Assembly: GCA_022703625.1 (NCBI GenBank)
Contig: JAKLDH010000001.1
Span: forward strand, 12,157-76,156
From: Cyanobacteriota bacterium
Lineage (GTDB): Bacteria > Cyanobacteriota > Vampirovibrionia > Gastranaerophilales > UBA9971
Length of the DNA stretch: 64,000 bases
Direction: 5' to 3'
Shown here: one piece after another, positions 3,796-60,965 of the stretch
How the letters are laid out: each line of letters opens with the position of its first letter
Position numbering within the stretch: the first letter of the stretch is position 1
Made by a program: the position numbers and the translations under genes
Notes under the pieces: generated by a model
Database searches by the model: none
What the model saw: only the letters and a program-made list of their open reading frames with translations
Told to the model about the DNA's origin: nothing

Positions 3796-3957
3796 TCTTT
3801 GTCTGAAGGTGAATACATTTCTATTAGAATATTCACTCTTTATTTCCAGTCTTTATATTTTTAACATGGAAAAATTTATCTTACAAGTCTTAAGGCTATT
3901 GAAATTTTATAAATTGCGTTTTCGCTTCTTATATCTAATGCTTGAATCAATTATATA

Positions 3958-4287
3958 TTAGTCGGAAAGTAGCGTTTCCAGCTCATTATCATCGCCTAAT
4001 GCCTTTTTCTGAATGTTATGCATAATTGTGTCAACCAAATGATTAAACGATCTTAAATTTTGAATTTTTGGCGAAAATTCTCGTATTAATGATTGCTCAA
4101 TTAATTTCCTTAAACTTTCAACAGGATTTGACTCAATTTCGCTTTTTTTATCGCCGGTAGGACAAATTAAATCAATATAATCTGATGTTAATTTTAAATC
4201 CTGCATTTCAGTAAACAAAAACCATTTGAGTTTTGGTCCTATTCTTTTAAGTTCGTTAGTAAATTTATGATTCTTTTTTTCTGTCAT
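3958..4287 (-). CDS. hypothetical protein (109 aa)
   Basis: Isolated ORF with a clean intergenic context. No motif I recognise. Confidence 0.5.
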   Translation of the reverse strand: MTEKKNHKFTNELKRIGPKLKWFLFTEMQDLKLTSDYIDLICPTGDKKSEIESNPVESLRKLIEQSLIREFSPKIQNLRSFNHLVDTIMHNIQKKALGDDNELETLLSD

Positions 4288-5016: not shown

Positions 5017-6078
5017 ATGCCAAATTTTTTAATATATACAATTATTTTCATTTTTTTAACAGGCGTTATTTCATTTTTAATATACTTTTTTAATAAAAAG
5101 AGAAGGTATGAAATAGAATATAATAAAGGGATTGAGGCATATCAGGCAGAAAACTTTGATGAAGCTATAAGTTTTTTTAATAAAGCCACGATAATTAACC
5201 CTGAAAAACCGGATGGGTTCTATAATTTAGGACTGGTTTACATGGCGATTGAAAAAAACGCTTTGTCGGAAAAAAACTTTATGAAAGCAATACAATTGGG
5301 ACCCAACGACCCTGATTCCTATTATAATCTTGCGTTGCTTTATTTAAACATGGAAAATTTTGATTCGGCATTAAAACAATTGTCAAAAGTTTTAACTCTT
5401 AATCCTGAAGAGTCAGAATCCCTTTATTTAAGCGGGCTTATTTTAAAAGAACAGGATAAATTTGATGATGCGTTGGAATTTTTAAAAAAAGCCGTTAAAG
5501 TTTCTCCTAAAAATACGGATTATATTTTTGCGCTTGGCGAAACTTATGACAAAAGAGGGGTCATTGAACAGAATATTAAAGACCTGGATAAAGCCGTTGT
5601 TTTTTACAAAAAAGTTATTGAAACGGATGAAAATAATGAGAACGCCAATTATGCCCTTGCAATTTGTTCCGCTAAAAAGGGATTATGGGAAGATTGCGTT
5701 AAATATTGCAAAAGAGTTCTGGAAATAAATGATAAATCAGCGAGAGCATATAATCAAATGGGTCTTTCGATGTACTGCAACAGCGATTACGACGCTGCAA
5801 TTTCCATGTATCAAAAAGCCGTTGAAGTTAATCCTGAATTTTTTGAAACTTACAATAATTACGGATTTGTTTTGGAAAAGCAGGGGGATTTTGAAAAAGC
5901 GGTTGAAATGTTTAAAAAATATGTTAATTTGCTCGATACGCTGGAAGCAGACAAAAAAACTTTTAAAACCCGCCTTAGAGAGCTTAATGAGCATGAAGAA
6001 AGCGTAAAATTAAAGAGAAAAGTTATAAAAGACCATATAAAACAGCTTGAAGACAGCATAAAGCTGAAAAATCAATAA
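5017..6078 (+). CDS. membrane-anchored TPR-repeat protein
   Basis: N-terminal TM helix, then repeated A..Y/F..A..P TPR-like 34-aa units. Confidence 0.75.
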   Translation: MPNFLIYTIIFIFLTGVISFLIYFFNKKRRYEIEYNKGIEAYQAENFDEAISFFNKATIINPEKPDGFYNLGLVYMAIEKNALSEKNFMKAIQLGPNDPDSYYNLALLYLNMENFDSALKQLSKVLTLNPEESESLYLSGLILKEQDKFDDALEFLKKAVKVSPKNTDYIFALGETYDKRGVIEQNIKDLDKAVVFYKKVIETDENNENANYALAICSAKKGLWEDCVKYCKRVLEINDKSARAYNQMGLSMYCNSDYDAAISMYQKAVEVNPEFFETYNNYGFVLEKQGDFEKAVEMFKKYVNLLDTLEADKKTFKTRLRELNEHEESVKLKRKVIKDHIKQLEDSIKLKNQ

Positions 6079-6084
6079 TCAGCC

Positions 6085-7473
6085 ATGGAAAACAAATCGG
6101 AAAAAATAAAAAGAAAAATTATAAATTTTCTGGAAAAATATAAGCTTTTATGGAGCGAAAACTTTTTGCTCGTCGGATTTTCAGGCGGAGCGGATTCTTT
6201 GTGTTTGCTTGACAGCCTGCATAAAATCAGCGGCAATTATGCTTTTAAAGTTGCGGCGGCTCATTTAAACCACAACTGGAGAGGCGAAGACTCTTTGCGG
6301 GAAGCTAAAAAGGCGGAACTATACTGTAAAAAGGCAGGAATTGAATTTTTTACAGAAACTCTTTCCTCAGAATTACCGCAAACAGAAGATGAAGCCAGAA
6401 AACAGCGTTATATTTTTTTCAACAAAACTGCGAAAAAAATATCCGCAATCTCGATTTTAACTGGACATACCAGAACAGATAATGCTGAAACCGTTTTATA
6501 CAGAATAATTAAAGGAACAGGTTTGATTGGACTTAAGGGAATACCTGAAATCAGAAAGCAGGAAAACGGAATTTCAATATACAGACCGCTTCTTAATGAT
6601 ATTTTAAGAAAGGATTGCATTGATTATTGTAATGAAAACTTTTTATCTCCAAGCTTTGACGCAAGCAATTTAAATGAAAAATACTTGAGAAACAGGATAA
6701 GACACAGCCTGTTGCCGGAATTAAGAACTTATAATAAGGCTGTAGACGATTCTATATTAAGATTATCTTCTATAGCAAAGGAATCAGAAGAAATTATAGC
6801 AGAATATATTGATTTTAAGAGTAAGAATCTTTTTTTAGAGGAGAATATAATAAGCGCAGAGAACTTTTTAAAATTATCAGAACCTCTAAAAAGACGTATG
6901 CTCTTAAATTTTTTACATAAAAATGAAATTGAACATACATTTGAACGAATTGAGGATTTATATAATTTTATAAACGAAAATACAGCGTCAAAATCAGGCA
7001 AAACCTTTTCTCTGGGGGAAAATTCCTGGTTTTTTGTATCCTCGAAGGAATTAAAAATAATTGATCATACAAAAGGGAAGAAGACCGCTGTAACTGTTCC
7101 TGTAAGCTTTGAAAAAAAGATTTTCCATCCTGATTTAAAAGTAAGTATAAAAATAGAAAAATGGACTGAAGGCATGCCGCAAAAATTTCCTCCCGATGTT
7201 TCATATACTGTTTATGCGGATTTAAGCCGAATTAAAGGGGATTTGTTTTTTAGAACGAGAAGAGAAGGCGATATTATACAGCCTTTTGGAATGCGGGAGA
7301 AGACAAAATTAAAAAAATATCTTATCAATCGAGGAATACCGGAATATACAAGAGATGAACTTCCTTTACTTGCAACTGAAAAAGAGATTTTATGGGTTGC
7401 AGGAGTTGGAATCAGCGAATTGTTAAGAGTAAACAAAAAACCTTCGCATATAATTAAACTATGCTTTACCTAA
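6085..7473 (+). CDS. tilS: tRNA(Ile)-lysidine synthase
   Basis: PP-loop 'GFSGGADSLCLL', typical length (462 aa) and C-terminal TilS substrate domain pattern. Confidence 0.9.
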   Translation: MENKSEKIKRKIINFLEKYKLLWSENFLLVGFSGGADSLCLLDSLHKISGNYAFKVAAAHLNHNWRGEDSLREAKKAELYCKKAGIEFFTETLSSELPQTEDEARKQRYIFFNKTAKKISAISILTGHTRTDNAETVLYRIIKGTGLIGLKGIPEIRKQENGISIYRPLLNDILRKDCIDYCNENFLSPSFDASNLNEKYLRNRIRHSLLPELRTYNKAVDDSILRLSSIAKESEEIIAEYIDFKSKNLFLEENIISAENFLKLSEPLKRRMLLNFLHKNEIEHTFERIEDLYNFINENTASKSGKTFSLGENSWFFVSSKELKIIDHTKGKKTAVTVPVSFEKKIFHPDLKVSIKIEKWTEGMPQKFPPDVSYTVYADLSRIKGDLFFRTRREGDIIQPFGMREKTKLKKYLINRGIPEYTRDELPLLATEKEILWVAGVGISELLRVNKKPSHIIKLCFT

Positions 7474-14092: not shown

Positions 14093-14456
14093 TACCAAGT
14101 TGCAATCAATGTATACCAATCGAAATAAGTTTTCGTTAATTTATTAAAAAGCTGATACCTACAGCCCGCGCCGCCTTGCGGGCGGCGCGGACTGAGTAAG
14201 GATATAGCGAGTGTTTTGTAGCGCAAGCGGGAGTTTTAACTCATTCATGCTGCCGAAGGCAAAACACCCGTAAATTAAAGATTTACAAAAACCATCTTTT
14301 TTATTTAACGGTTTTTTAAATTAATTGGTATAGTATTAAATCTCCCTCCCCCTGCCCCCGCCCCAAGGGCGGGGAAGAAGAGTTGATAAGGGTTTTGCCG
14401 GTTACGCCGGCAAAACCCTTATCAAAAAATAATACTCTTTTGATTGCAACTTGGTA
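14093..14456 (+). mobile_element. family-A MITE (TIR TACCAAGTTGCAATCAA) carrying a nested family-B MITE
   Basis: Terminal inverted repeats at 14093-14109 and 14440-14456, flanked by TAA (14090-92) and TAA (14457-59). Collinear with the 53006 copy except for the B insertion. Confidence 0.8.
14114..14330 (+). mobile_element. family-B MITE (TIR TACCAAT...ATTGGTA), long subtype, nested in A
   Basis: Flanked by TA (14112-13) and TA (14331-32), while the paralogous empty site at 53025-26 has a single TA. Carries hairpins CAGCCCGCGCCGCC/GGCGGCGCGG and GTGTTTTG.../CAAAACAC, the latter with a ~35-nt loop insertion. Confidence 0.85.
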
Positions 14457-16062: not shown

Positions 16063-16914
16063 ATGAGTATTATTATCAACACAAACGTAAGCTCAATTTT
16101 AGTTCAAAGAAGTTTATCAACATCAACCCACAACATTCAGTCATCATTGGAAAAACTTTCAACAGGTTATAGAATCAACAAAGCCGCTGATGATGCGGCA
16201 GGTTTAAGCATATCCGAAAGCTTGAAAGCGCAGGGGCGTGGCGCTCAAGTAGCTTCAAACAACGCTCAAACAGGTATTAACCTTTTGCAAACAGCAGAAG
16301 GCGACCTTGCGATCATTCAGGAAAACTTGCAAAGAATCAGAGATCTTGCTATTCAGGCGGCAAACGGAACAAACGGTTCTGCTGAAAGAACAGCAATCCA
16401 GGCTGAAGTCCAACAGCGTGTTACAGAAATCGACAGACTGGCAGAGTCATCCGCATTTAACGGAATAAAACTTTTAGACGGATCAACAACTTCTGATCTT
16501 AAAATTCAAATCGGCGCAAACAGTAATCCGTCATTAAACTCAATCAGCCTTACAGATGGAGAAAATCCGCTGGAAAGCGCAACAGCTTCTTCTCTTGGAA
16601 TGACAACAGCTTTAGCTACAGCGTTTGGAACTACAGGCGCCGCGGCGAGTTTCATTTCTCAGATTGATGATGCTATTTCAAACGTGTCTTCAAGAAGATC
16701 AACAATAGGTTCTATCCAAAATAGATTAGAATCCGCAATTCAGAGTTTAAATATTCAGTATGAAAACATGTCAGCGTCTGAATCCAGAATCAGGGACGTA
16801 GATGTTGCTGACGAAGCCGCAAACCTCACCAAAAATCAAATATTGCAACAGGCTTCCGCTTCTCTGTTAGCTCAGGCTAACCAGGCGCCGTCGATTGCTC
16901 TAAGTTTAATATAA
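16063..16914 (+). CDS. flagellin (short, 283 aa)
   Basis: Flagellin N-domain 'MSIIINTNVSS...YRINKAADDAAGLSISE' and C-domain 'ILQQASASLLAQANQAPSIALSLI'. The central region is only about 60 aa. Confidence 0.95.
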   Translation: MSIIINTNVSSILVQRSLSTSTHNIQSSLEKLSTGYRINKAADDAAGLSISESLKAQGRGAQVASNNAQTGINLLQTAEGDLAIIQENLQRIRDLAIQAANGTNGSAERTAIQAEVQQRVTEIDRLAESSAFNGIKLLDGSTTSDLKIQIGANSNPSLNSISLTDGENPLESATASSLGMTTALATAFGTTGAAASFISQIDDAISNVSSRRSTIGSIQNRLESAIQSLNIQYENMSASESRIRDVDVADEAANLTKNQILQQASASLLAQANQAPSIALSLI

Positions 16915-17041: not shown

Positions 17042-17893
17042 ATGAGTATCATTATTAACACGAACGTAAGCTCAATTTTAGTTCAGAGAAGTTTATCGAC
17101 TTCAACACACAACATTCAGTCATCATTGGAAAAACTTTCAACCGGTTATCGAATCAACAAAGCGGCTGATGACGCGGCAGGTTTAAGTATTTCCGAAAGC
17201 TTGAAAGCTCAGGCTCGTGGCTCTCAGGTAGCGGCAGCAAACGCTCAAACAGGCATTAACCTTTTGCAAACAGCAGAAGGCGACCTTGCGATCATTCAGG
17301 AAAACTTGCAAAGAATCAGAGATCTTGCTATTCAAGCGGCAAACGGAACAAACGGTTCTGCTGAAAGAACGGCAATTCAATCTGAAGTTCAACAGCGCGT
17401 TACTGAAATTGACAGGCTGGCAGATTCATCCGCATTTAACGGGATAAAACTGTTAGACGGTTCAGCAACTTCTGATCTTAAAATTCAGATCGGCGCAAAC
17501 AGTAATCCGTCATTGAACTCAATCAGCATTACTTCCGGAGAAAACCCTCTGGAAAGCGCAAGCGCATCTTCTCTTGGAATGACTACAGCTTTGTCTACAG
17601 CGTTTGGAACTGCAGGATCAGCGGCGAGTTTCATTACTCAAATTGATGATGCGATTTCTAACGTATCTTCAAGAAGATCAACAATAGGTTCTATTCAAAA
17701 CAGATTAGAATCCGCTATTCAGAGTTTAAATATTCAGTATGAAAACATGTCAGCGTCTGAATCCAGAATCAGGGACGTTGATGTTGCTGACGAAGCCGCA
17801 AAACTCACCAAAAATCAAATATTGCAACAGGCTTCCGCCTCTCTGTTAGCTCAGGCTAACCAGGCGCCGTCAATTGCCCTAAGTTTGATATAA
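17042..17893 (+). CDS. flagellin (short, 283 aa), tandem paralog
   Basis: Same length as flagellin 1, with about 20 substitutions clustered in the central region. The leader AGATAAGGAGAATCTTATT preceding the ATG is identical. Confidence 0.95.
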   Translation: MSIIINTNVSSILVQRSLSTSTHNIQSSLEKLSTGYRINKAADDAAGLSISESLKAQARGSQVAAANAQTGINLLQTAEGDLAIIQENLQRIRDLAIQAANGTNGSAERTAIQSEVQQRVTEIDRLADSSAFNGIKLLDGSATSDLKIQIGANSNPSLNSISITSGENPLESASASSLGMTTALSTAFGTAGSAASFITQIDDAISNVSSRRSTIGSIQNRLESAIQSLNIQYENMSASESRIRDVDVADEAAKLTKNQILQQASASLLAQANQAPSIALSLI

Positions 17894-21069: not shown

Positions 21070-21153
21070 ACTAAAAAAGTTTTCGTTAATTTGCTAAAGA
21101 GCTGATATCTATAGCCCGCAAGCTAAGACTTTACAAAAATCGCCTTTTTTATT
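21070..21153 (+). repeat. family-B element, internally deleted, left end degenerate
   Basis: AAGTTTTCGTTAATTTGCTAAAGAGCTGATATCTATAGCCCGCA joined directly to GACTTTACAAAAATCGCCTTTTTTATTTA. Both GC hairpins are missing. Begins right after the mtaB stop (21067-69). Confidence 0.6.
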
Positions 21154-21155
21154 TA

Positions 21156-21487
21156 TACCAATTTAAATAAGTTTTCGTTAATTGGTAAAAAAGCTAATAT
21201 TTACAGCCCGCGCCGCCCTGCGGGCGGCACGGGCTAGGTAAGGGTATAGCAGGTGTTTTGCCTTCGGCAAAACACCTGCTAATTAATACCAAGTTGCAAT
21301 CAAACAATTACTATTTCTTTGATGTGGTTTTCGCCGGCAAAGCCGGCGAAAACCACATCAAATCTTCTCCCCCTCCCTTCAGGGAGGGGTTAGGGGGAGG
21401 GTGATTTCATACTACATTGATTGCAACTTGGTATAAGGATTTATAAAAATCATCTTTTTTATTTAACGGTTTTTAAATTGATTAGCA
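21156..21487 (+). mobile_element. family-B MITE interrupted by a family-A MITE
   Basis: TACCAAT at 21156 preceded by TA. The right end is the degenerate ATTAGCA (21481-87) followed by TA. Body matches B1/B4/B8 on both sides of the A insertion. Confidence 0.75.
21287..21433 (+). mobile_element. family-A MITE nested in B (different hairpin cargo)
   Basis: TIRs TACCAAGTTGCAATCAA / TTGATTGCAACTTGGTA flanked by TAA (21284-86) and TAA (21434-36). Cargo is the hairpins GATGTGGTTTTCGCCGGC/GCCGGCGAAAACCACATC and CTCCCCCTCCC/GGGAGGGG. Confidence 0.8.
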
Positions 21488-22820: not shown

Positions 22821-22983
22821 TAAGGCACCTCTAAAAACTAACTTTTTTGAAATTTTCATAAAATTTGACTGGGGTTTGTTGTAGGGGCTTCGCCCCTACA
22901 CACAAACTTCTCCCCCCTTTGAAGGGGGGTAGGGGGGTAGATATAAAAAATAAAATTCTTTTGTTTTTAGAAACTCCCATTAA
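22820..22983 (+). mobile_element. family-E MITE (164 bp) filling the kinase-regulator spacer
   Basis: Aligns end to end with the reverse complement of 42457-42620. Ends are TTAAGGCACCTCTAAAAA ... TTTTTAGAAACTCCCATTAA. Hairpins GTAGGGGCTTCGCCCCTAC and CCCCCCTTTGAAGGGGGG. Confidence 0.75.
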
Positions 22984-24068
22984 TTATGCTCCTGAAATCT
23001 TTGTTGAGCCTGCATTTCAGCAGAAGCAACCGGCAGGGTCAATTTAAAAACAGAACCTTTATCGTTGCTTGTTGCTGTGATATCGCCTTTCATGCTTTTT
23101 ACAAGAGATTTTGTAATATATAAACCAAGCCCTGTCCCTTGAACCTGACGAGTAAGAGGATTATCAATTCTTGAAAATTTAGTGAAAATTTTTGTTAAAA
23201 ACTCCTCCGGAATTCCAAAACCCTGATCTTTAATTTTTATTTCTATTTTATCAGTGTTGTTTTGAGCAAAACCAGCCTCAATAGTAACAATGGTTGCGGG
23301 TTTTGAGTATTTTAGAGCATTATCAACAAGATTCATCATAACTTGTTCAAGTTTATCGGAATCTCCCCATATAGGAGGCAGATTGGGAAGGATATTCACT
23401 TCTATTTTATGCTCTTTTGCTTTATGCTGAAGGTTGTTCAGAATAGTGTCTATCATTTCTTTACTATTTATAGCCTTATAAATAGTTTTAGAGCTTTTAG
23501 CTTCAAGCTTTGAAACTGTAAGCAGATTTTCAACAAGTCTTGCCAGTCTGTCTGTTTGACTTTTAATGATGCTTATAAATCTTATGCGTTGTTCTTTGGT
23601 TAAATTATCTCCGGCGGCAAGCAGGGTTTCGGCAAAACCTTTTATGCTTGTCAGAGGAGTTCTTAACTCGTGGCTTACTGTGCTGACAAAATCCAGATGA
23701 GCCTGATTTAAAAAAACTATGTCAGAAAAGGGAATTACCAGATAAATAATATAATTTTCTTTTATTACGGTTTTATTTATTCTTACACAGTTTAGTTTTT
23801 CATTTTTATCTTTTAATTCTCCGAGCTGATAGGTCAAATTTGTCTGATCTTCCTGCTCGTTCATTTCCTGACAAACGGCGCAGGCTTCTTTTGAAGAAGG
23901 TCTTATCACTTCAAAAACATTTTTATCTACAAGTTCTTCTTTTAAATAACCTGAAATTTTCTCAAATTTAGCGTTTACCTCTATAATTTTATGTTCAGAG
24001 TTGCAAATTGCTACTCCTTCAGGCAAATTTTCTATAATTTTTTTATAAAAATCTTTTTCAGTATACAT
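22980..24068 (-). CDS. PAS-domain sensor histidine kinase
   Basis: H-box 'SHELRTPLTSI', N-box 'NLVDNALKYS' and G-boxes 'DQGFGIP' / 'GTGLGLYI'. N-terminal PAS-like region. Confidence 0.88.
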   Translation of the reverse strand: MYTEKDFYKKIIENLPEGVAICNSEHKIIEVNAKFEKISGYLKEELVDKNVFEVIRPSSKEACAVCQEMNEQEDQTNLTYQLGELKDKNEKLNCVRINKTVIKENYIIYLVIPFSDIVFLNQAHLDFVSTVSHELRTPLTSIKGFAETLLAAGDNLTKEQRIRFISIIKSQTDRLARLVENLLTVSKLEAKSSKTIYKAINSKEMIDTILNNLQHKAKEHKIEVNILPNLPPIWGDSDKLEQVMMNLVDNALKYSKPATIVTIEAGFAQNNTDKIEIKIKDQGFGIPEEFLTKIFTKFSRIDNPLTRQVQGTGLGLYITKSLVKSMKGDITATSNDKGSVFKLTLPVASAEMQAQQRFQEHN

Positions 24069-42321: not shown

Positions 42322-42459
42322 TTTTTCCTGCTAAAATGCCCTTTATACTTTACATTTTCCTTGAATGTATAAGGACATTTTGTTGATACATTTAAGGTTT
42401 TTATTTTAATCCACTGTTTAAATTATCATACAAATTAATATTATAAGCAAATCTCTTTA

Positions 42460-42616
42460 AGGCTTCTCTAAAAACAAAAGAATTTTATTATTTATATCTA
42501 CCCCCCTGCCCCCCTTCAAAGGGGGGAGAAGTTCATGGGTAGGGGCTTCGCCCCTACACCAAACCCCAATCAAATTTTATAAAAATTTCAAAAAATTGAA
42601 TTTTTAGAGGCGTCCT
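42460..42616 (-). mobile_element. family-E MITE, complete
   Basis: TIRs AGGCTTCTCTAAAAA (42460-) and TTTTTAGAGGCGTCCT (-42616), flanked by TTA (42457-59) and TTA (42617-19). Confidence 0.75.
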
Positions 42617-42690
42617 TTAATATTTCGGGTAATTTAATTTATCACTAAATAATTTATACTTAAAAGAAAATTATACCAATTTAGTTTTAT

Positions 42691-42778
42691 AATAAAAGTC
42701 GTTAATATGTTTACATTTAACGAGTTTTCCTCATTACCCGCAAGAAATTCATGTTAATTAGTTTTGTCGTTTAGTATA
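42691..42778 (+). repeat. conserved 85-nt 5'-element, copy 2 (ends 3 nt before the phosphoribosyltransferase ATG)
   Basis: Full-length alignment with 18161-18247. A TATACCAAT family-B-type terminus lies just upstream at 42672-42680. Confidence 0.7.
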
Positions 42779-42781
42779 ATT

Positions 42782-43438
42782 ATGAAAATAGAAAAATACG
42801 AGTCTAAAGAAGCTGCCGGTGAAATTCTTGCAGAAAAACTTTTTGAATTAAAGTTAGAAAAACCCTATATAATGGCTGTTTTAAGAGGCGGGGTTCAAGT
42901 TGCGCAAGTAATTGCGGATAAATTTAAACTTCCTGTACATCCTTTGATAGTAAAAAAACTTCCTTCTCCTGAAAATCCAGAATATGGATTTGGAGCTGTT
43001 ACAGAAGACGGGACTTTAGTTCTTAATGAAAATGCTGTTCTTTCTTTGAAACTTAGCCGGGATATCATAGAAAAAATTGCTAATACTATTGTTCTTGAAA
43101 TTCAACGCAGAAAAAATATATTTGGCGAGCTTGATAATAAAAAAATAAGCGAATCAGACGTAATTATAGTTGATGATGGCATTGCAACCGGTTATTCTTT
43201 AATTGCCGCTATAAATACAGTTAAAAAACGGCGTCCTAAATCTATTACTATAGCTGTTCCGGTAAGTTCATTAAGCGCTTATTCAGTTATAAAAAAACTT
43301 GCTGACAATATTGTTTGTCCTCTTATAAGCAGTGATTATTTTTTTACGGTCGCCGCATATTATAAAACATGGAGTGATTTATCAGAAGAAAGTCTTAAAT
43401 TTATTATTGAAGACTACAAAAATAAATATTCTGATTAA
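42782..43438 (+). CDS. phosphoribosyltransferase-family protein
   Basis: PRPP-binding loop 'VIIVDDGIATGYS'. The ATG at 42782 (MKIEKYESKEAAG) is preferred over the TTG at 42764. Confidence 0.8.
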   Translation: MKIEKYESKEAAGEILAEKLFELKLEKPYIMAVLRGGVQVAQVIADKFKLPVHPLIVKKLPSPENPEYGFGAVTEDGTLVLNENAVLSLKLSRDIIEKIANTIVLEIQRRKNIFGELDNKKISESDVIIVDDGIATGYSLIAAINTVKKRRPKSITIAVPVSSLSAYSVIKKLADNIVCPLISSDYFFTVAAYYKTWSDLSEESLKFIIEDYKNKYSD

Positions 43439-43606
43439 CTTGAATTGCTAAATAAATAATTTTATATTTGGCGTAGCGGCTGGCTTCGCCAGCCGCTACG
43501 CCGTTTTAAGGGCATGCGGCTCGCAGGCTTTGCCTGCGAGCCGCATAAAAAATTAAAATAAAATTTCAATCTATTTCAGCGTTTCGACTAATTAGCAATT
43601 CGAGTT
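43437..43606 (+). mobile_element. family-F MITE (TIR AACTTGAATTGCTAA)
   Basis: Left TIR 43437-43451, right TIR TTAGCAATTCGAGTT 43592-43606 (15/16 match). Cargo hairpins GCGGCTGGCTTCGCCAGCCGC and GCGGCTCGCAGGC/GCCTGCGAGCCGC. The PRT stop codon (43436-38) overlaps the left end. Confidence 0.75.
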
Positions 43607-43620
43607 GATTAAAATAATAA

Positions 43621-43894
43621 AATGATCTTTTGAACACAAGGGGGTTCGGGGGCTTGCCCCTGACAGTCTTGTCCCCTTGGGGTTCAGTTTTTCTTTCTTT
43701 TGCGCGCCTAAGGCGCATTAATAGGGAACTGTTACTTGGATTGTGTCCCAAGCTTCCCGCTTTGCGGGTTCTTTCTTTTTGCGTTCAAAAAGAAAGAAAA
43801 TGAAGAAACGGTAAGTCTTGTATTTACATGCTGGAAAGATGCTGTTGCGAAGCAGTCGGCGCTGTCCGCATTTCGCAAACAAATTCAGCATGAC
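43621..43894 (+). repeat. family-C element, long isoform (copy 2)
   Basis: Same head, core and tail as copy 1, plus a ~72-nt internal insert (GCGCGCCTAAGGCGC...CCCGCTTTGCGGG) between the two TTCTTTCTTTT(T)GC direct repeats. Ends 5 nt from the glutaredoxin stop. Confidence 0.7.
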
Positions 43895-43898
43895 TCTT

Positions 43899-44171
43899 TT
43901 AGGCTGGTTCTTTTAATAAAATATCCAGTTTTCCTGACTCGTTAAGTTCCTTAAGATCAGTATATCCTCCAATATGTTTACTGTTTATAAAAATTTGAGG
44001 AACAGTTGTTCTTCCGGTTGAACCAATCATTTCTCCTATTTTTTCCCTCATCTCTCCTTCATTTGAAGTTATATCAATGTTTTCAAAGTCAATTCCTCTT
44101 TCATTAAGAAGTTTCTTTGCTTTATTGCAATACGGACAATAATCAACTGTATATATAACTACTTTTGCCAT
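43899..44171 (-). CDS. grxC: glutaredoxin
   Basis: 'CPYC' active site, 'TVPQIFI' and 'GGYTDL'. Confidence 0.9.
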   Translation of the reverse strand: MAKVVIYTVDYCPYCNKAKKLLNERGIDFENIDITSNEGEMREKIGEMIGSTGRTTVPQIFINSKHIGGYTDLKELNESGKLDILLKEPA

Positions 44172-44210
44172 AATTTTCTCCTTTTTATATATATTTATTT
44201 TCGGTGGCGG

Positions 44211-44325
44211 CTAAATTCTAAACGCTAATTTTATTGGGGTTTGGTGTAGGGGCTTCACCCTTACCCATCAACTGTTCCCTCCCCTCAAGGGGAGGGTTAG
44301 GGAGGGGTGATAAAAAATCACTTCA
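44211..44325 (+). repeat. family-E variant
   Basis: TTGGGGTTTGGTGTAGGGGCTTCACCCTTACC followed by the CCCTCCCCTCAAGGGGAGGG hairpin. Confidence 0.5.
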
Positions 44326-44454
44326 TTTTTTACCACTACCTTCTTTTCTATTTTATATTATTTTTCTCTTATTTTATTGATAACTTTATTTATTTTTAAT
44401 AATTAAACAGTATACTTTTATTATCTATTAAACGATAAAGCTAATTAACTTTAA

Positions 44455-44757
44455 ATGATTATAAAAGAATTTTCAAAACATCTTCAAAAATTTAATGCGG
44501 ATATTCCTGCTTTAATTATTCTTTCAAAATGGCTTAAAGAAAAAATTTCAAAAAAAGCGGAAAATAATGTTGAGAAAATTTTACAAAAAGAAATTGTTTT
44601 GTTAAAAAACAAAAGAGGTTTATTTTTATTGCTCGCTAAATCATCTTCAGGACAAAAACTCCTTGAATCCTTATATGAATTTGCTTTAAGTTATGATAAT
44701 TACAAGTTTAACAAGTGGTTGCATAAAATAAAGGCAAGCGATTTTATTTTAGAATAA
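44455..44757 (+). CDS. hypothetical protein (100 aa)
   Basis: Isolated ORF between repeats. No recognisable motif. Confidence 0.4.
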   Translation: MIIKEFSKHLQKFNADIPALIILSKWLKEKISKKAENNVEKILQKEIVLLKNKRGLFLLLAKSSSGQKLLESLYEFALSYDNYKFNKWLHKIKASDFILE

Positions 44758-44769
44758 ACTTTATTAATT

Positions 44770-44939
44770 TACTTGAGTTTTTAAAAAAATAATTTTATAT
44801 TTGGCGTAGCGGCTGGCTTCGCCAGCCGCTACGCCTTCTTAAGGATATGTGGCTCGCAGGCAAAGCCTGCGAGCCACATAAAAAATTAAAATAAAATTTC
44901 AAGCTATTTCAGCCTTTAGACTAATTCCTAACTCAGGTA
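44770..44939 (+). mobile_element. family-F MITE, second copy (diverged TIRs)
   Basis: Core is almost identical to 43451-43590. Ends are TACTTGAGTTTTTAA and TTCCTAACTCAGGTA. Confidence 0.65.
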
Positions 44940-45030
44940 TATTAATGACTTTTATTAAAATAAACAAATTTTAATTACCGGTTTTTTATTGTAAAATTTT
45001 ATAAAGGGCATGGATTTTTTTAAAACCTCC

Positions 45031-45196
45031 TGTAGAAAACTTGTGTAAAACTTGTATAAAAGTATGTTTTTTTTGTAGAAAACAATTGTAGATAAATATA
45101 ACCTTTGTAGAAAATTCTTTAGTTTTATACAAACTTTTAACAGGTTTTGCGCAAGCAAGATTAATAGTATAAGCGTATTTTATACTGTTTTCTACA
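45031..45196. other. putative chromosomal replication origin (oriC): DnaA-box cluster upstream of dnaN
   Basis: TGTAGAAAA at 45031, 45074 and 45106, and its complement TTTTCTACA at 45188. Variants are TGTGTAAAA 45042, TGTATAAAA 45053 and TGTAGATAA 45087. An AT-rich stretch at 45221-45297 follows. Confidence 0.6.
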
Positions 45197-45315
45197 GAAA
45201 AACTCTTCCCCTACTATTACTAGATAAATAAATTAATTTTTTAAATTATTATTTAGTAAGTAAAATGATTAAGGTGAAAGAAATTTTTTAAAAAAAGTTG
45301 AGGAGTTGTTTAAAA

Positions 45316-46428
45316 ATGAAATTTTCTGTTGAAAAAAATGTAATTAATAACGCTTTAAATATTGTTTCAAAAGCAGCTGCGGCAAGAGGAATACAACCGG
45401 TACTTTCAAATGTTTTAATAGAAACTGTTGAAAATAATCAAATAAAATTATGCGCAACTGATCTTGATATTTCAATTGAAATGAAAATTGCGGCAGAAAT
45501 TTCTGAAAAAGGCAGTATTACACTTCCGGCAAAAAAATTGAATGAAATAATTTCAAAATTATCAAATGAAAAAGTAAATTTTAATATTAAAGGTGAAGAT
45601 AATGTTGTTGAAATTAAATGCGGAAGTTCAAAATTTGATATTAAAGGCATTGCGGCGAGCGAATTTCCTGTTGTGGAATATCCTGAAACAGAAGATTATA
45701 TTGATATAGTTATTGAACCTTTATTAAAAGCCGTAAAGCAAACTATTTTTGCTACCGCTACTTATGATATGAATAATGTTTTAAGCGGAGTTTTCTGTAA
45801 AATTAATGAAAACACCCTTGAAATGGCGGCTCTTGACGGAAACAGACTGGCAAGGGTTAAAGAAGAAATAGAAAATATAGAAAATAAAAGTTTTTCTGTT
45901 ATTATTCCGTCGAGAACTTTAAAGGAATTTATGAATATTTTATCCGGCGTTGAAGATGAAAAAGTGTCAATAACAGTTAGAAACGGACAAATTTTGTTTA
46001 AATTAAAAGACAGATTTATAACTTCGAGATTAATTGAAGGTCAATTCCCTAATTATGAACAGCTTATACCTTTAAGCAACAATAAAAAAGCGACAATAGA
46101 CAAAAATAAACTGATGTCTACGCTTGACAGAGTTTCTACAATGGTTAACGAAAGAACAAATATAGTTAAATTTTCATTTAACAAGGATAATTTAAAAGTA
46201 ACAGCAGATACTCCTGATCTTGGAGATTCCTGCGACGAGTTATTGGTTGATTATAAAAACGAGAGTTTTGATATAGCTTTTAATTACAGATATATTCAGG
46301 ATTTTTTAAAAATAACCGAAACAGAAAATGTTGTAGTGGAGATGGATGGTTCTCTTTCAGGCGTTTTGTATAAATCAGAAGGGGAAAAAGAAGCTGTTTG
46401 TTTAATAATGCCTGTTCAGCTTAATTAA
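45316..46428 (+). CDS. dnaN: DNA polymerase III beta subunit (sliding clamp)
   Basis: 'MKFSVEKNVINNALNIVSKAA...PVLSNVLIE...LCATDLDISIE' beta-clamp pattern. 370 aa from the ATG at 45316 (GAGGAG upstream). Confidence 0.92.
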   Translation: MKFSVEKNVINNALNIVSKAAAARGIQPVLSNVLIETVENNQIKLCATDLDISIEMKIAAEISEKGSITLPAKKLNEIISKLSNEKVNFNIKGEDNVVEIKCGSSKFDIKGIAASEFPVVEYPETEDYIDIVIEPLLKAVKQTIFATATYDMNNVLSGVFCKINENTLEMAALDGNRLARVKEEIENIENKSFSVIIPSRTLKEFMNILSGVEDEKVSITVRNGQILFKLKDRFITSRLIEGQFPNYEQLIPLSNNKKATIDKNKLMSTLDRVSTMVNERTNIVKFSFNKDNLKVTADTPDLGDSCDELLVDYKNESFDIAFNYRYIQDFLKITETENVVVEMDGSLSGVLYKSEGEKEAVCLIMPVQLN

Positions 46429-46480
46429 CGCCAAGTTTTAATAAAGATAACCGATAATATTTTTTATGTAAAAAATAAAA

Positions 46481-46691
46481 AAAAGACAAAAATCAAGCAT
46501 TTGAATACAAGGGGGTTCGGGGGCTTGCCCCTGATGGATTTGTCAGTTTGTCATGTTAGTTTTTTCTTTTCTTTTGGTTCGTTTTCTTTGCTTTTTTTCA
46601 AAAAAGAAAAGAAAATGAACAAACGGTAAGCATTGCATTGCATGCTGGAAAGATGCTGTTGCGAAGCAGTAGGTGCTGTCCGCATTTCGCA
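46481..46691 (+). repeat. family-C element, short isoform (copy 3), left bracket of the methyltransferase cassette
   Basis: AAAAGACAAAAATCAAGCATTTGAATACAAGGGGGTTCGGGGGCTTGCCCCTGATGG... The tail is replaced by an E fragment. Confidence 0.7.
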
Positions 46692-46788
46692 GCGAAGCCC
46701 CTACCTACAAACATCTCCCCCCTTCAAAGGGGGGCAGGGGGGGTAGATATAAAAAACAAAAATTCCTTGTTTTTAGAGGTGCCCATTA
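46692..46788 (+). repeat. family-E fragment
   Basis: GCGAAGCCCCTACC...CTCCCCCCTTCAAAGGGGGGCAGGGGGGGTAGATATAAAAAAC...TTTTTAGAGGTGCCCATTA. Translated by the spurious ORF 46638..46832. Confidence 0.6.
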
Positions 46789-46911
46789 CTTTTTTTATTG
46801 CAACTTTGTGTGAAAATACTCCAAATTATTGATTCAATCCGTATGATAATTAGTTATTTTATTCTTAATTAAGCATAAAAATAAAATGCGCAGAGAGAGA
46901 GTGAAATAAAA

Positions 46912-47784
46912 TTGAAAACTAAAAAAAATTCCGGCACAGAAGCTAAATTGCGACTTATTGACGGAAATACCGTTAAAAAAACCAAGCCTTATAATGATAT
47001 AGACCTTAATAACTGGAAGGAATACGATCATATAAATACCGGCACCTTATGGATGTTTAATGAAAGAGCAAAAAATAACGGTCATAAATTTGATTATCAC
47101 GGTAATTACATTCCTCAAATAGCGGAACAGCTTTATAACAGATACACAAAACCAGGCGATATTATTCTTGACCTGTTTTTGGGCTCAGGAACATCCGCAA
47201 TAGAAGCGGTTAATCTGGGAAGAAAATGCATAGGCGTAGAAATAAAACCTGATTTGACTGAAAAAGTAAGACAAAAACTTAAAGAGATTGATCAAAATAA
47301 TCTTACAGAAGTAATTTGCGAAAACAGCGCGTCAGAAAATCTTTGCCTAAAAATTAATGACGTTCTTGAAAAACTGGGAAACGAAAAAGCTCAGTTTTTA
47401 ATTCTTCACCCCCCTTACGCAGATATTATAAAATTTAGCGATAAGAAAACAGACCTTTCAAATTGCGCTTCAACGGCGGAATTTCTGGATAAGTTTGCCA
47501 TGGTTGCGGAAAACGGGTATAAATGTCTGGAAAATGGAAGATATGCGGCTTTAATAATAGGAGATAAATATTCTAAAGGTGAGCTTGTCCCGCTTGGATT
47601 TTATTGCATGCAAAAAATGAACGAGGTTGGTTTTAAAACAAAATCAATCATTGTTAAAAATATAGAAGGCAATGAGATCGGAAAGGGTAAAACAAACAAT
47701 TTATGGAGATACAGAGCGCTTGCCGGTGGATTTTATATTTTTAAACACGAATATATAATGATTTTTCAAAAAGAGAAAAAATAG
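46912..47784 (+). CDS. putative DNA (N6-adenine or N4-cytosine) methyltransferase, solitary
   Basis: SAM-binding 'ILDLFLGSGTSAIEAVNLGRKCIGVEI' and catalytic 'LHPPY', a (D/N/S)PPY variant. No nuclease or specificity gene is adjacent. Confidence 0.6.
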   Translation: MKTKKNSGTEAKLRLIDGNTVKKTKPYNDIDLNNWKEYDHINTGTLWMFNERAKNNGHKFDYHGNYIPQIAEQLYNRYTKPGDIILDLFLGSGTSAIEAVNLGRKCIGVEIKPDLTEKVRQKLKEIDQNNLTEVICENSASENLCLKINDVLEKLGNEKAQFLILHPPYADIIKFSDKKTDLSNCASTAEFLDKFAMVAENGYKCLENGRYAALIIGDKYSKGELVPLGFYCMQKMNEVGFKTKSIIVKNIEGNEIGKGKTNNLWRYRALAGGFYIFKHEYIMIFQKEKK

Positions 47785-47797
47785 ATAGCTTATACTA

Positions 47798-47980
47798 TAC
47801 CAATCATTAAAAGAAATCAGCAAATGAAAAAGATGATTTTTGTAAGTCCTTAATTTGCGGGTGTTTTGCCGAAGGCAAAACACCCGCTATACCCTTACTC
47901 AGCCCGCGCCGCTCGCAGGGCGGCGCGGGCTATAAATATCAGCTTTTTAACCAATTAATGAAAATTTATTTGGATTGGTA
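47798..47980 (-). mobile_element. family-B MITE, short subtype
   Basis: TACCAAT...ATTGGTA flanked by TA (47796-97) and TA (47981-82). Hairpins GCGGGTGTTTTGCC/GGCAAAACACCCGC and CAGCCCGCGCCGC/GCGGCGCGGGCT. Confidence 0.8.
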
Positions 47981-47985
47981 TAATT

Positions 47986-48200
47986 TCCATGTTTGTTCAT
48001 TTCTTTTTCTTTTTGCGTCAAAAAGAAAAAGAACCCGCAAAGCGGGAAACTTGGGATACAATCCAAGTAACAGCACCCTGTGAATGTGCCTTAGGCACCC
48101 AAAGAAAAAGAAAAACTAACAGGACAAACTGACATATCCATCAGGGGCAAGCCCCCGAACCCCCTCTTTTTTAAATGCATGTTTTTTGCTTTTGTCTTTT
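47986..48200 (-). repeat. family-C element, long isoform (copy 4), right bracket of the methyltransferase cassette
   Basis: The reverse complement reads AAAAGACAAAAGCAAAAAACATGCATTTAAAAAAGAGGGGGTTCGGGGGCTTGCCCCTGATGGATATGTCAG... with the same internal insert as copy 2. Confidence 0.7.
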
Positions 48201-48320
48201 AGTATTTTAATTTTTTTCAATACTTCGACTAATTAATAACTTAAACTATATAAAAAATTTTTAAATGTTTTATTATAAAAAAATTTTATTCTATAATAAA
48301 TTTAGACAAATATATTTTAA

Positions 48321-48402
48321 GGGCGAGTGGCGAAATGGTAGACGCGCTAGTCTTAGGAACTAGTAGGCAACCCCTGTGAGAGTTCGAATCTCTCCCCGCC
48401 CA
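48321..48402 (+). tRNA. tRNA-Leu (anticodon UAG)
   Basis: Hand-folded 82-nt type-II tRNA: anticodon loop CTTAGGA, long variable arm, T-loop TTCGAAT. One A-C mismatch in the acceptor stem. Confidence 0.85.
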
Positions 48403-51439: not shown

Positions 51440-51449
51440 AATACCTCTA

Positions 51450-51568
51450 TACCAATCATTAAAAAAAAATCGGCATTTGTAAGTCCTTAATTTGCGGTTG
51501 TTTCGGCTCTGCCGAAACAACCGCAATACCCTTGCTCAGCCCGCTCCGCCCTGCGGGCGGAGCGGGCT
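51450..51568 (-). mobile_element. family-B MITE, truncated; shared hairpin between convergent aroA and ispE
   Basis: TA-TACCAAT left end at 51448. Hairpins GCGGTTGTTTCGGC/GCCGAAACAACCGC and CAGCCCGCTCCGCC/GGCGGAGCGGGCT. The element stops at the ispE stop codon (51567-69), which lies in the last hairpin arm. Confidence 0.7.
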
Positions 51569-52445
51569 AGCTTTCTTTTACCCCATAGTTTATTGATACA
51601 GCTTTAAAAACGTCATAACTGTCTTTTGAAAAGTCAATCTTTATATCATTTTCATAAATTCCGAATACAGTGGGTCCACTGCCGGACATGATTGCATTTT
51701 GACACCCTGCTTTAATTATAAGTTGTTTTACTTTATTAATTTCAGGATATGCTTGAAGAATTGCTTTTTCCAGGTCGTTATTTAAAAGCTTTGCAACGGT
51801 TTTTATATTAGTTGTTTTTTCGAGAATAACTTTTTTCATTGTGTCAAAATTTTTGATTTCCGACTTTATCGGCGACCCTGAATATTTTTGATAAGCTTCT
51901 TTTGCTGAAATAAACAGTTTAGAAGGTTTAACTATTAAAAATTTCAAATCAGGCGTGTTTATACGCTGTATTTTCTCGCCTCTTGAAGTTGCCTGGCAGG
52001 TTCCTCCGGTAAGACAAAAATTAACGTCCGAGCCTAGTTCAGAAGCTAAAAAATGTAATTGATCCGCGCTTAAAGGGTTTCCGTATAATTTATTTATCCC
52101 CCATAATGTCCCTGCGGCGTTTGAGCTTCCTCCCGCCAGTCCGGCGGCGACAGGGATATTTTTTTCAATATGAATATTTACCTTTTGATTTTTTATATCA
52201 GCGGTTTTTAAAAACATTTTCGCCGCTTTAAACGCAATATTGTTTTCATCGTAAGGGATTTGGGGATTATTGCCGCTAATTTTTATGATTTCAGCGTCAT
52301 TATCCTCTGTTTCAACAGATAAAAAATCAAAAAGGTTTATAGCCTGCATAATGCTTCGGATTTCGTGAAATCCGTCTTTTCTTTTTCCAAGAATTTCCAG
52401 TACAAGATTAAGTTTTGCAGGTGTTTTAATTTTAATTTTTTTCAT
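51567..52445 (-). CDS. ispE: 4-diphosphocytidyl-2-C-methyl-D-erythritol kinase
   Basis: 'PAKLNL' N-terminus and GHMP-kinase 'PVAAGLAGGSSNAA'. Confidence 0.92.
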   Translation of the reverse strand: MKKIKIKTPAKLNLVLEILGKRKDGFHEIRSIMQAINLFDFLSVETEDNDAEIIKISGNNPQIPYDENNIAFKAAKMFLKTADIKNQKVNIHIEKNIPVAAGLAGGSSNAAGTLWGINKLYGNPLSADQLHFLASELGSDVNFCLTGGTCQATSRGEKIQRINTPDLKFLIVKPSKLFISAKEAYQKYSGSPIKSEIKNFDTMKKVILEKTTNIKTVAKLLNNDLEKAILQAYPEINKVKQLIIKAGCQNAIMSGSGPTVFGIYENDIKIDFSKDSYDVFKAVSINYGVKES

Positions 52446-60497: not shown

Positions 60498-60604
60498 AAA
60501 ACTTTTTTATGAGGCTCGCAGGCAAAGCCTGCGAGCCTCATGGTTTTTCGAAGGCGTAGCGGCTGGCGAAGCCAGCCGCTACGCCAAATATAAAATTATT
60601 TATT
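60498..60604 (-). repeat. family-F core, reversed and truncated, host of the next B insertion
   Basis: TTTTTTATGAGGCTCGCAGGCAAAGCCTGCGAGCCTCATGG...GGCGTAGCGGCTGGCGAAGCCAGCCGCTACGCCAAATATAAAATTATTTAT. Its matching F terminus TTAGCAACTCAGGTT resumes at 60826-60840, after B8. Confidence 0.6.
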
Positions 60605-60606
60605 TA

Positions 60607-60822
60607 TACCAATCTAAATAAATTTTCGTTAATTGATTAAAAAGCTGATATTTACAGCCCGCGCCGCGGGCAGGGCGGCGCGGGCAGGGTAAGGGTATAG
60701 CGGATGTTTCGTTGCGCAAGCGGGAGTTTTAACTCATTCATGCTGCGAAGCCGAAACATCCGCTAATTAAGGCTTTACAAAAATCATATTTTTCATTTGC
60801 CGATTTCTTTTAATGATTGGTA
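60607..60822 (+). mobile_element. family-B MITE, long subtype, nested near the end of the F element
   Basis: TACCAAT...ATTGGTA flanked by TA (60605-06) and TA (60823-24). Has the same ~35-nt loop insertion (GCGCAAGCGGGAGTTTTAACTCATTCATGCTG) as B1. Confidence 0.8.
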
Positions 60823-60965
60823 TATTTAGCAACTCAGGTTAATATCATAAAATAATGCACTACTTACATGATAATTAAAGTTAATTCATTTGATATAATA
60901 ATTTGAAAAGTTTATAAAAAAGTAAGTATTAACTTTTGTAACGCGCTTATAATGAGGAACCGTTC

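Follow-up and report, generated by a model that had tools for sequence, protein, structure and literature searches.

The methylase gene and its neighbours

The stretch of DNA that we analysed (64 kb, hereafter the window) carries a gene for a DNA-methyltransferase-like protein (the methylase, 46912–47784, +), which is preceded by dnaN, encoding the DNA polymerase III beta clamp (45316–46428, +; identified by Pfam DNA_pol3_beta domains on the identical contig L007), and followed by a gene for tRNA-Leu (48321–48402, +; ARAGORN with anticodon tag, and Rfam). The genes around it code for MurC, MurB, Ddl, an RNase HII-family protein (PF01351), a DEAD helicase, a PRTase, glutaredoxin, DnaN, a polyprenyl synthase, LepB and AroA. 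Upstream of dnaN, a box cluster already pointed out in an earlier note on this DNA proved to hold four DnaA-box-like copies of TTTTCTACA (45031–45196), i.e. four of the six matches in the window, for which 1.36 would be expected in total. GC skew over the 64 kb gave no clear origin signal.

The earlier note had recognized the methylase by the motifs LDLFLGSGTS and HPPY. This assignment is borne out by the ORF, which starts with TTG and encodes 290 amino acids, by the presence of both motifs (motif I, aa 86–95, and motif IV, aa 166–169, respectively) and by a score of 75.1 bits against PF01555 (N6_N4_Mtase, curated cut-off 26.7), the sole Pfam family for which the protein exceeds the curated cut-off. 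F89, G91, S92 and G93 as well as H166, P167, P168 and Y169 are invariant, with HPPY being kept across 36 homologues. Since the motif X–I region (aa ~60–95) precedes motif IV, the motif order is permuted when compared to beta-class enzymes, in which IV comes before I, and the PF01555 HMM aligns as two swapped pieces. The motif X–I region aligns best to the beta-class N6/N4 methyltransferases of this family (TTHA0409, M.MboIIA, M.RsrI and M.PvuII), and a weak second match pairs HPPY with their N-terminal (S/D)PPY segment. Unlike these enzymes, the methylase has its SAM-binding half first and its catalytic half second, which amounts to a circular permutation, and it is a small protein whose conserved segments at the N and C termini are left unplaced by the model. 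The I-then-IV order also occurs in two PADLOC models of Type II methyltransferases.

The same order is found in RsmD, Trm11 and Trm14, and the protein might instead share its fold with DNA methylases but act on RNA (m2G/m6A) or protein, in which case a defence or epigenetic framing would be irrelevant. In line with this, there are weak Pfam matches to Cons_hypoth95 and UPF0020, some homologues are named RsmD by JGI, the gene is conserved at core-gene level, and a Foldseek search returned generic class-I methyltransferases with RNA m2G methylases near the top (aTrm11, Trm14 and PrmA among the top matches); the RsmD labels and these fold matches also count against the explanation of the locus that we favour below. 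However, the RsmD-type match reaches 24.6 bits and is barely at threshold, and the fold search, owing to the permutation, cannot tell methylases acting on DNA from those acting on RNA. Besides exceeding the curated cut-off of PF01555 alone, the methylase matches a REBASE-type PADLOC Type II methyltransferase model colinearly and over its full length (334 bits, E = 1.8e-100). The top matches of a PDB sequence search are all DNA methylases, the best solved relatives being the beta-class enzymes TTHA0409, M.MboIIA, CcrM, DpnA and RsrI, and colinear relatives in phages carry the annotation DNA adenine methylase or ParB-methylase fusion. We infer that the substrate is DNA (N6-adenine or N4-cytosine) and not RNA, and regard an RNA or protein methyltransferase as improbable.

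Conservation of the methylase and of its upstream motif

Among 7842 homologues of the methylase the nearest are 77–80% identical, which is the same range as for the nearest homologues of DnaN (77–80%), and where both proteins could be paired in one source their identities were 79% and 79% (GCA_028278305.1) or 79% and 78% (run SRR6201977) for methylase and DnaN, respectively. GC content, GC3 and codon usage of the gene are typical of the window, and its phage and plasmid relatives reach an identity of at most 33%. A Fusobacterium plasmid match falls in an unannotated 2.1-Mb record. The methylase is conserved clade-wide at core-gene divergence and carried by every relative; judged from sequence, it is a vertically inherited gene of this clade.

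That the methylase has no nuclease, specificity or other partner gene, as the earlier note had stated, agrees with our analysis: no nuclease, specificity or transposase gene was found within ~10 kb, and no nuclease lies beside the methylase in seven contexts (this species, its four closest relatives, and the loci L003 and L146). The adjacent endonuclease expected of a Type II restriction-modification system is hence missing from the window and from the loci of six relatives. The absence of a cognate nuclease combined with clade-wide conservation is the pattern of regulatory orphan methyltransferases (PMC6105098, PMC6471742), and in both respects, including its retention across the whole clade at core-gene divergence, the methylase resembles the conserved orphans Dam and CcrM and those of cyanobacteria and haloarchaea. 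It differs from Dam and CcrM in that it is not orthologous to them (36.5 bits against the CcrM model, with a cut-off of 830), in its permuted motif order and in having HPPY in place of DPPY. Since clade-wide conservation without a nuclease partner supports a regulatory over a defensive role, the proposal that this orphan is regulatory can be retained on these grounds, but its position next to the replication origin lends no support. In three relatives no methylase lies within 7 kb of dnaN, and since the positions of both the methylase and dnaN differ among relatives, proximity to the origin is not conserved. The methylase is a conserved orphan, probably with a housekeeping role. Our literature search retrieved nothing specific on Melainabacteria orphan methylases or on the HPPY motif.

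About 95 nt before the methylase start codon lies the motif ATACTCCAAATTATTGATTCAAT (46816–46838, +), which occurs once in the window and is found at the same distance from the methylase in all relatives with 73–80% protein identity. It accompanies the gene as a candidate promoter or operator. A promoter and terminator scan performed no better than on shuffled sequences, and Rfam returned no match for the leader or the repeats, with no family matching the C element described below.

Two genes adjoin the methylase in each of the four closest relatives, one for 5-FTHF cyclo-ligase and a conserved HTH_3 gene. The species studied here has both intact on another contig, where an 859-aa gene follows 32 nt after HTH_3 with no repeat scar. 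As the methylase has parted from these neighbours, promoter and ORF would have moved as a single-gene cassette. L003 and L146 have no methylase-HTH_3 adjacency, so that the ancestral state of this adjacency cannot be demonstrated. The small HTH_3 protein, often the neighbour of the methylase, is very highly conserved. A presumed HTH_3 remnant in the window was rejected, as nothing there resembles HTH_3 or 5-FTHF cyclo-ligase.

Family-C elements and other repeats at the locus

The methylase is bracketed by two copies of a repeat, family C, in inverted orientation. Being short, non-coding, multicopy and bounded by terminal inverted repeats, C qualifies as a MITE with terminal inverted repeats (TIR-MITE): 16 complete copies of 259–451 nt carry CGATAATATTTTTTATGTAA inverted at both ends (20-nt termini), and a span of 856 nt in L083 probably comprises two elements. 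More than 60 copies were found in low-GC loci, most of them solo, with no clear target duplication seen around complete solo copies. C shares its short, non-coding, multicopy and spacer-confined nature and its build from interchangeable hairpin modules with terminal inverted repeats with the mosaic intergenic MITE/REP-type repeats (PMC3184786), such as BOX, Correia and the cyanobacterial MITEs, but it is another sequence family, found on low-GC (31–42% GC) metagenome contigs including this species' own. On the C family or Melainabacteria MITEs we found nothing specific in the literature. The G-rich 21-mer of the C head occurs four times in the window (38988+, 43640+, 46511+ and 48144−), where none is expected, and these four copies all lie within 9.3 kb, denser than in the metagenome loci.

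The left copy (46452–46691, +) has its outer terminal inverted repeat at 46452–46474 (CGATAATATTTTTTATGTAAAAA) and its head at 46511–46531 and is missing the inner terminus. The right copy (47991–48207, −) has its head at 48144–48164 and an internal insertion of ~78 nt and lacks both terminal inverted repeats; rightward of 48164, CGATAATATTTTTTATGTAA is absent at up to 3 mismatches. As the right terminus of this copy is gone, a putative unit lacks a defined outer junction at which a target duplication could be recognized. The inverted arrangement described in the earlier note is confirmed by complementary arms of 102 nt (46477–46578 and 48097–48198, 85%) and 44 nt (46581–46624 and 47991–48034, 75%). 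The copies do point head-out, but the heads are not outermost in the element, since the true ends marked by CGATAATATTTTTTATGTAA lie ~59 nt further out; likewise, the ~25 nt of homology reported beyond the heads is real, but is accounted for by these outlying ends and belongs to C itself.

Identity between the two copies is 84.8%, and when the matches of either are ranked, the other comes only 19th or 13th. Elsewhere, the left copy is matched best in L114 (92.7%) and the right copy in L030 (94.1%) and L052 (94.7%). The ~78-nt insertion of the right copy is common to the copy at 43640, not to its left partner, and the 5′ leader also differs. The flanking copies are diverged members of different sub-variants and would have inserted independently. 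Among the C pairs elsewhere, a head-out pair in L111 encloses four ordinary genes, L054 has a head-out pair with no cargo, and further pairs are direct (L052, L127 and L133) or tail-out (L093). The C variant of L054 is double-headed, with perfect ends of 83 nt, and shows that a head-out pair can make up a single element.

Further repeats lie inside the bracket. An "E" fragment (46692–~46802) abuts the left C copy and matches 42466–42551 (85%) and 22892–22985 (82%) as well as a sequence in L142. A B MITE copy (47792–47986) directly follows the methylase stop codon and matches 21153–21286 (90%), 60604–60824 (75%), 14112–14336 (72%) and 51447–51569 (74%). Both had been noticed previously; the B copy, then taken as complete, is however shorter than the copies of 221–225 nt elsewhere. 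Repeats occupy 19 of the 58 spacers in the window and stand on both sides of 10 of its 57 genes, and seven consecutive spacers (42322–48320) all bear them. From these counts, the probability that one gene in this window alone is enclosed by a head-out C pair can be put roughly at 0.1.

Origin of the inverted arrangement

We consider it likely that the methylase is a conserved orphan, probably of housekeeping function, in a MITE-saturated region, and that its inverted C bracket is coincidental. The enzyme would most likely methylate a short chromosomal motif for housekeeping or regulation rather than for restriction defence and would have its own conserved promoter region. MITEs have colonised every intergenic spacer in this part of the window, and the two C copies would be separate, old and partly destroyed TIR-MITE insertions, one per spacer, whose inverted arrangement would be a coincidence. 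No differences were found here among four assemblies of this species (100% identity), none of which has an empty site or an inversion, and thus the presence/absence variation of the 1.7-kb segment that the earlier note had proposed to look for was not seen among them. Beyond the species, no comparator exceeds 80% DnaN identity, none of six relatives has flanking inverted repeats around the methylase, and there are no C heads at the methylase loci of the relatives. None of the metagenome loci analysed overlaps 38–49 kb or contains orthologues of the neighbouring genes, and a DnaN search of genome contigs returned only distant Oscillospiraceae (27–30% identity).

Alternatively, homologous or illegitimate recombination between dispersed MITEs could have placed the methylase cassette beside dnaN, in which case the repeats would mark rearrangement junctions and the inverted arms could allow occasional inversion. 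On either side of the methylase, at about 46803 and 47792, unique sequence gives way precisely to repeats, synteny is scrambled throughout the group, dnaN included, and the run of seven repeat-filled spacers would fit as well. The shift of the cassette, together with the unique DNA ending at repeats, counts in this respect against a coincidental bracket, as do the double-headed C of L054 and the clustering of the four C copies of the window. However, the HTH_3 locus on the donor side carries no repeat scar, and methylase neighbours also vary among relatives without C elements, so repeats are not required. Moreover, ~100 nt at 85% identity are a poor recombination substrate, and a single orientation is found in all assemblies. 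Hence, we hold a repeat-mediated rearrangement to be unlikely.

Pairs of inverted non-autonomous copies that bracket a cargo gene are known as TIME-COMPs or integron mobilization units (PMC13367494, PMC11602168), and a transposase acting in trans could have moved promoter and methylase (about 46806–47784) within such a C pair into the origin-proximal dnaN–tRNA-Leu spacer, after which the ends decayed. The composite transposon or captured cargo that the earlier note had envisaged shares with these units the two inverted copies of a non-autonomous inverted-repeat element around a gene. Besides this head-out geometry with its intact left outer terminus, the departure of the methylase from its HTH_3/5-FTHF neighbours in this lineage, the known mobilisation of cargo by MITE pairs (PMC13367494) and the existence of a double-headed C element would agree with it, but we regard it as very improbable. 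In contrast to the known units, termini are completely absent from one copy here and the other has a single one, the outer terminus needed for transposition being absent on the right; the copies, at 85% identity, are not sisters but belong to different sub-variants of a common repeat; E and B pieces make the interior a patchwork; neither a second or an empty site nor, within ~10 kb, a transposase was found; and the cargo is a vertically inherited clade gene whose position varies also among relatives without C elements and which these carry without flanking repeats. At present the 1.7-kb segment does not form a transposable unit, and there is no indication that it did so in the past. Since evidence of a transposon is missing, the arrangement of the methylase between two C copies is most likely ordinary.

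As found, this arrangement matters little, but it holds the caution that in MITE-saturated genomes an inverted repeat bracket around a gene is to be expected by chance. If a C pair had indeed moved the methylase, MITE-composite mobilisation would extend from plasmid resistance genes to core chromosomal genes, and MITEs of the Melainabacteria group could relocate a clade-conserved housekeeping gene within the chromosome. The by-products are of modest use. One is a TIR-MITE family, with its true termini defined, from genomes of uncultured Gastranaerophilales-type bacteria, and another is the small HTH_3 protein, very highly conserved and often beside the methylase. The third is the methylase itself, a clade-wide orphan whose motif order is permuted, whose HPPY is invariant and which is preceded by a conserved motif; it makes a reasonable candidate for epigenetic housekeeping in these non-photosynthetic relatives of cyanobacteria.

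The methylase and its control region

The open reading frame that the earlier note had taken for a DNA methyltransferase gene was confirmed at 46912–47784 on the forward strand, where it starts with TTG and encodes 290 amino acids. Pfam PF01555 (N6_N4_Mtase) is the sole family above its curated threshold (75.1 bits, cut-off 26.7), and no NCBIfam model attains its cut-off (CcrM, 36.5 versus 830). The HPPY motif, the SAM loop and long stretches at the N and C termini do not vary across 36 homologues. Motifs X–I precede motif IV, an order that is permuted relative to beta-class enzymes and resembles that of RNA m2G methylases. This resemblance accounts for aTrm11, Trm14 and PrmA appearing among the generic Foldseek hits; the structure model has a pLDDT of 70 and a confident core. 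The X–I half is by sequence nearest to the DNA methylases TTHA0409, M.MboIIA, CcrM, DpnA and RsrI, a PADLOC Type II methyltransferase model gives a colinear full-length match (E = 1.8e-100), and phage relatives that are colinear with it bear the annotation DNA adenine methylase or ParB-methylase fusion. On these grounds the protein is very probably a DNA methylase. Residues 1–64 and 251–277 (a C-terminal loop) are strongly conserved in homologues and have low AlphaFold confidence; they may contact DNA and fold only when bound to the substrate.

Among 7842 scored homologues the closest reach 77–80% identity, as do the closest relatives of DnaN. The two proteins show 79% and 79% identity in the single MAG GCA_028278305.1 and 79% and 78% in run SRR6201977 (methylase and DnaN, respectively), and each has an identical counterpart in a "Candidatus Gastranaerophilales" MAG. 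In GC content (0.339 versus a window mean of 0.354), GC3 and codon usage the gene is typical for the window, and relatives on phages and plasmids do not exceed 33% identity. By these comparisons, the methylase is a gene of the clade and not cargo. A 22-nt motif, ATACTCCRAAWTNWTGATTYAA, which includes a TTGAnTCAA palindrome, occurs only once in the window, at 46816–46838, some 95 nt ahead of the conserved TTG start. Every relative at 73–80% identity (L001, 4902–4923; L003, 4892–4913; L004, 4170–4191; L009, 5900–5921; L013, 199–220) has it at the same distance from the methylase start, and it is a candidate for an operator or a promoter element. The methylase thus takes its own control region along with it.

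Genomic neighbourhood in relatives

In the relatives L001, L004, L009 and L013 the methylase gene is convergent with an XRE/HTH_3 gene (121–127 aa; 5882–6250, 5151–5516, 6873–7238 and 1371–1754, respectively), followed by a 5-FTHF cyclo-ligase gene, while the genes upstream vary. The HTH_3 protein is 87–92% conserved between genera, exceeding methylase and DnaN; among these four relatives the figure is 89–92%. Both genes are absent from the window; on contig L142 of the same genome, separate from the methylase, the pair is intact (HTH_3 at 3843–4208), with a convergent 859-aa gene 32 nt beyond and no repeat scar beside it. In this lineage, therefore, the methylase cassette has been relocated as a single-gene unit. 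In more distant relatives it lies between PBP and Zn-ribbon genes (L003) or H+-PPase and LptC genes (L146). The neighbours of dnaN differ in every relative examined, and in none of them is the methylase within 7 kb of dnaN. Synteny is therefore generally scrambled in this group, the position of the methylase is lineage-specific and its proximity to the origin is not conserved. Four TTTTCTACA boxes at 45031–45196 (166 nt; six in the window versus 1.4 expected) resemble a DnaA-box cluster, with no dnaA gene adjacent; given this cluster upstream of dnaN, an origin-like site nearby is plausible.

As the earlier note had stated, the methylase is without a partner: no nuclease, specificity subunit or transposase was found near it in any context examined. 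The bracket of inverted repeats did not recur in the relatives, where the methylase is present without flanking inverted repeats or any C head at the locus. The independent same-species assemblies L007, L144, L145 and L008 are 100% identical over the region, with no structural variants among them.

Family C and the two flanking copies

The 21-mer head of family C, GGGGGTTCGGGGGCTTGCCCC, has four matches in the window (38988+, 43640+, 46511+ and 48144−; none expected) and at more than 116 loci in a metagenome scan. In low-GC contigs (31–42% GC, some from a same-species sample) it is embedded in a larger conserved element, about 59 nt internal to one end. In sixteen complete copies of 259–451 nt (one, L083, spans 856 nt and probably represents two elements), (GAC)CGATAATATTTTTTATGTAA stands at each end, in inverted orientation. 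Family C is accordingly a TIR-MITE, assembled from interchangeable hairpin modules; no Rfam family covers it. A 451-nt double-headed variant with no cargo (L054 1021–1471 = L138 1521–1971) ends in perfect 83-nt terminal inverted repeats, each of which contains the head. The exact head also occurs in dozens of unrelated metagenome contigs of 48–75% GC (within L024–L139; for example L034, L043, L048, L061, L067, L072, L077 and L096), in at least five distinct conserved contexts, mostly as the palindrome TTCGGGGGCTTGCCCCCGAA; the head matches no Rfam family.

The inverted repeat around the methylase is borne out at 46477–46578/48097–48198 (102 nt, 85% complementary), with a second block at 46581–46624/47991–48034 (44 nt, 75% complementary). 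The homology of about 25 nt beyond the heads that the earlier note described is explained by the C element, which extends past them; the heads are internal and not the element ends. Window self-comparison places C up to 46691 and a fragment of another family at 46692–~46800 on the left, and a B-family copy at 47792–47986 followed by inverted C at 47991–48207 on the right, ahead of tRNA-Leu(tag) at 48321–48402. On either side, the unique DNA of the cassette stops exactly where repeats take over. Of the two termini, the left copy retains the outer one, in perfect form (46452–46474), and lacks the inner one; the right copy lacks both. About half of the C copies elsewhere lack one terminus, so terminus decay is common.

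Over their common ~110 nt the arms are 84.8% identical and rank only 19th and 13th as each other's match in a sample of ~60 copies; the left is 92.7% identical to the L114 copy and the right 94% to the L030 and L052 copies. The right copy shares a ~78-nt insertion with the 43640 copy that is absent from the left, and its 5′ leader is a different sub-variant. By sequence, the arms are not a pair.

Origin of the bracket

Repeats cover 9.5% of the window and occur in 19 of 58 spacers, and 10 of the 57 genes are flanked on both sides by spacers with repeats. All four C copies lie within 9.3 kb, and each of the seven consecutive spacers of 42322–48320 contains MITE material, making this a local MITE hot spot beside the putative origin. 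From these counts we estimate at roughly 0.1 the chance that a head-out C pair encloses a single gene in this window alone; genome-wide, such a bracket is unremarkable. Outside the window, C pairs occur in every orientation: direct (L052, L127, L133), tail-out (L093) and head-out (L054/L138 and L111). The L111 pair encloses four ordinary genes (dehydrogenase, flagellin and two kinase-like). The window has two tandem flagellin paralogues (16063–16914 and 17042–17893; 283 aa each, ~880 nt repeated), and a third, related copy in metagenome locus L111 is 95.5% identical.

The best explanation of the bracket is that two C MITEs inserted independently into a MITE-saturated, origin-proximal stretch, one on either side of a conserved orphan methylase cassette, and then decayed. 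That a repeat-mediated rearrangement placed the cassette here is unlikely, though its movement as a single-gene unit and the exact repeat boundaries of its unique DNA fit such an event. Both observations would also suit a decayed MITE composite that carried the cassette, a known kind of element (PMC13367494); we consider this origin very improbable. The composite-transposon reading of the earlier note is not supported, as the arms are not sisters, the right copy has no termini and the methylase is a clade gene.

The same note had suggested that an orphan methylase next to the origin could be regulatory rather than defensive. Its position does not speak for this, but its conservation makes a regulatory role reasonable, and the methylase matches the reported pattern of conserved orphan methylases (PMC6105098, PMC6471742).
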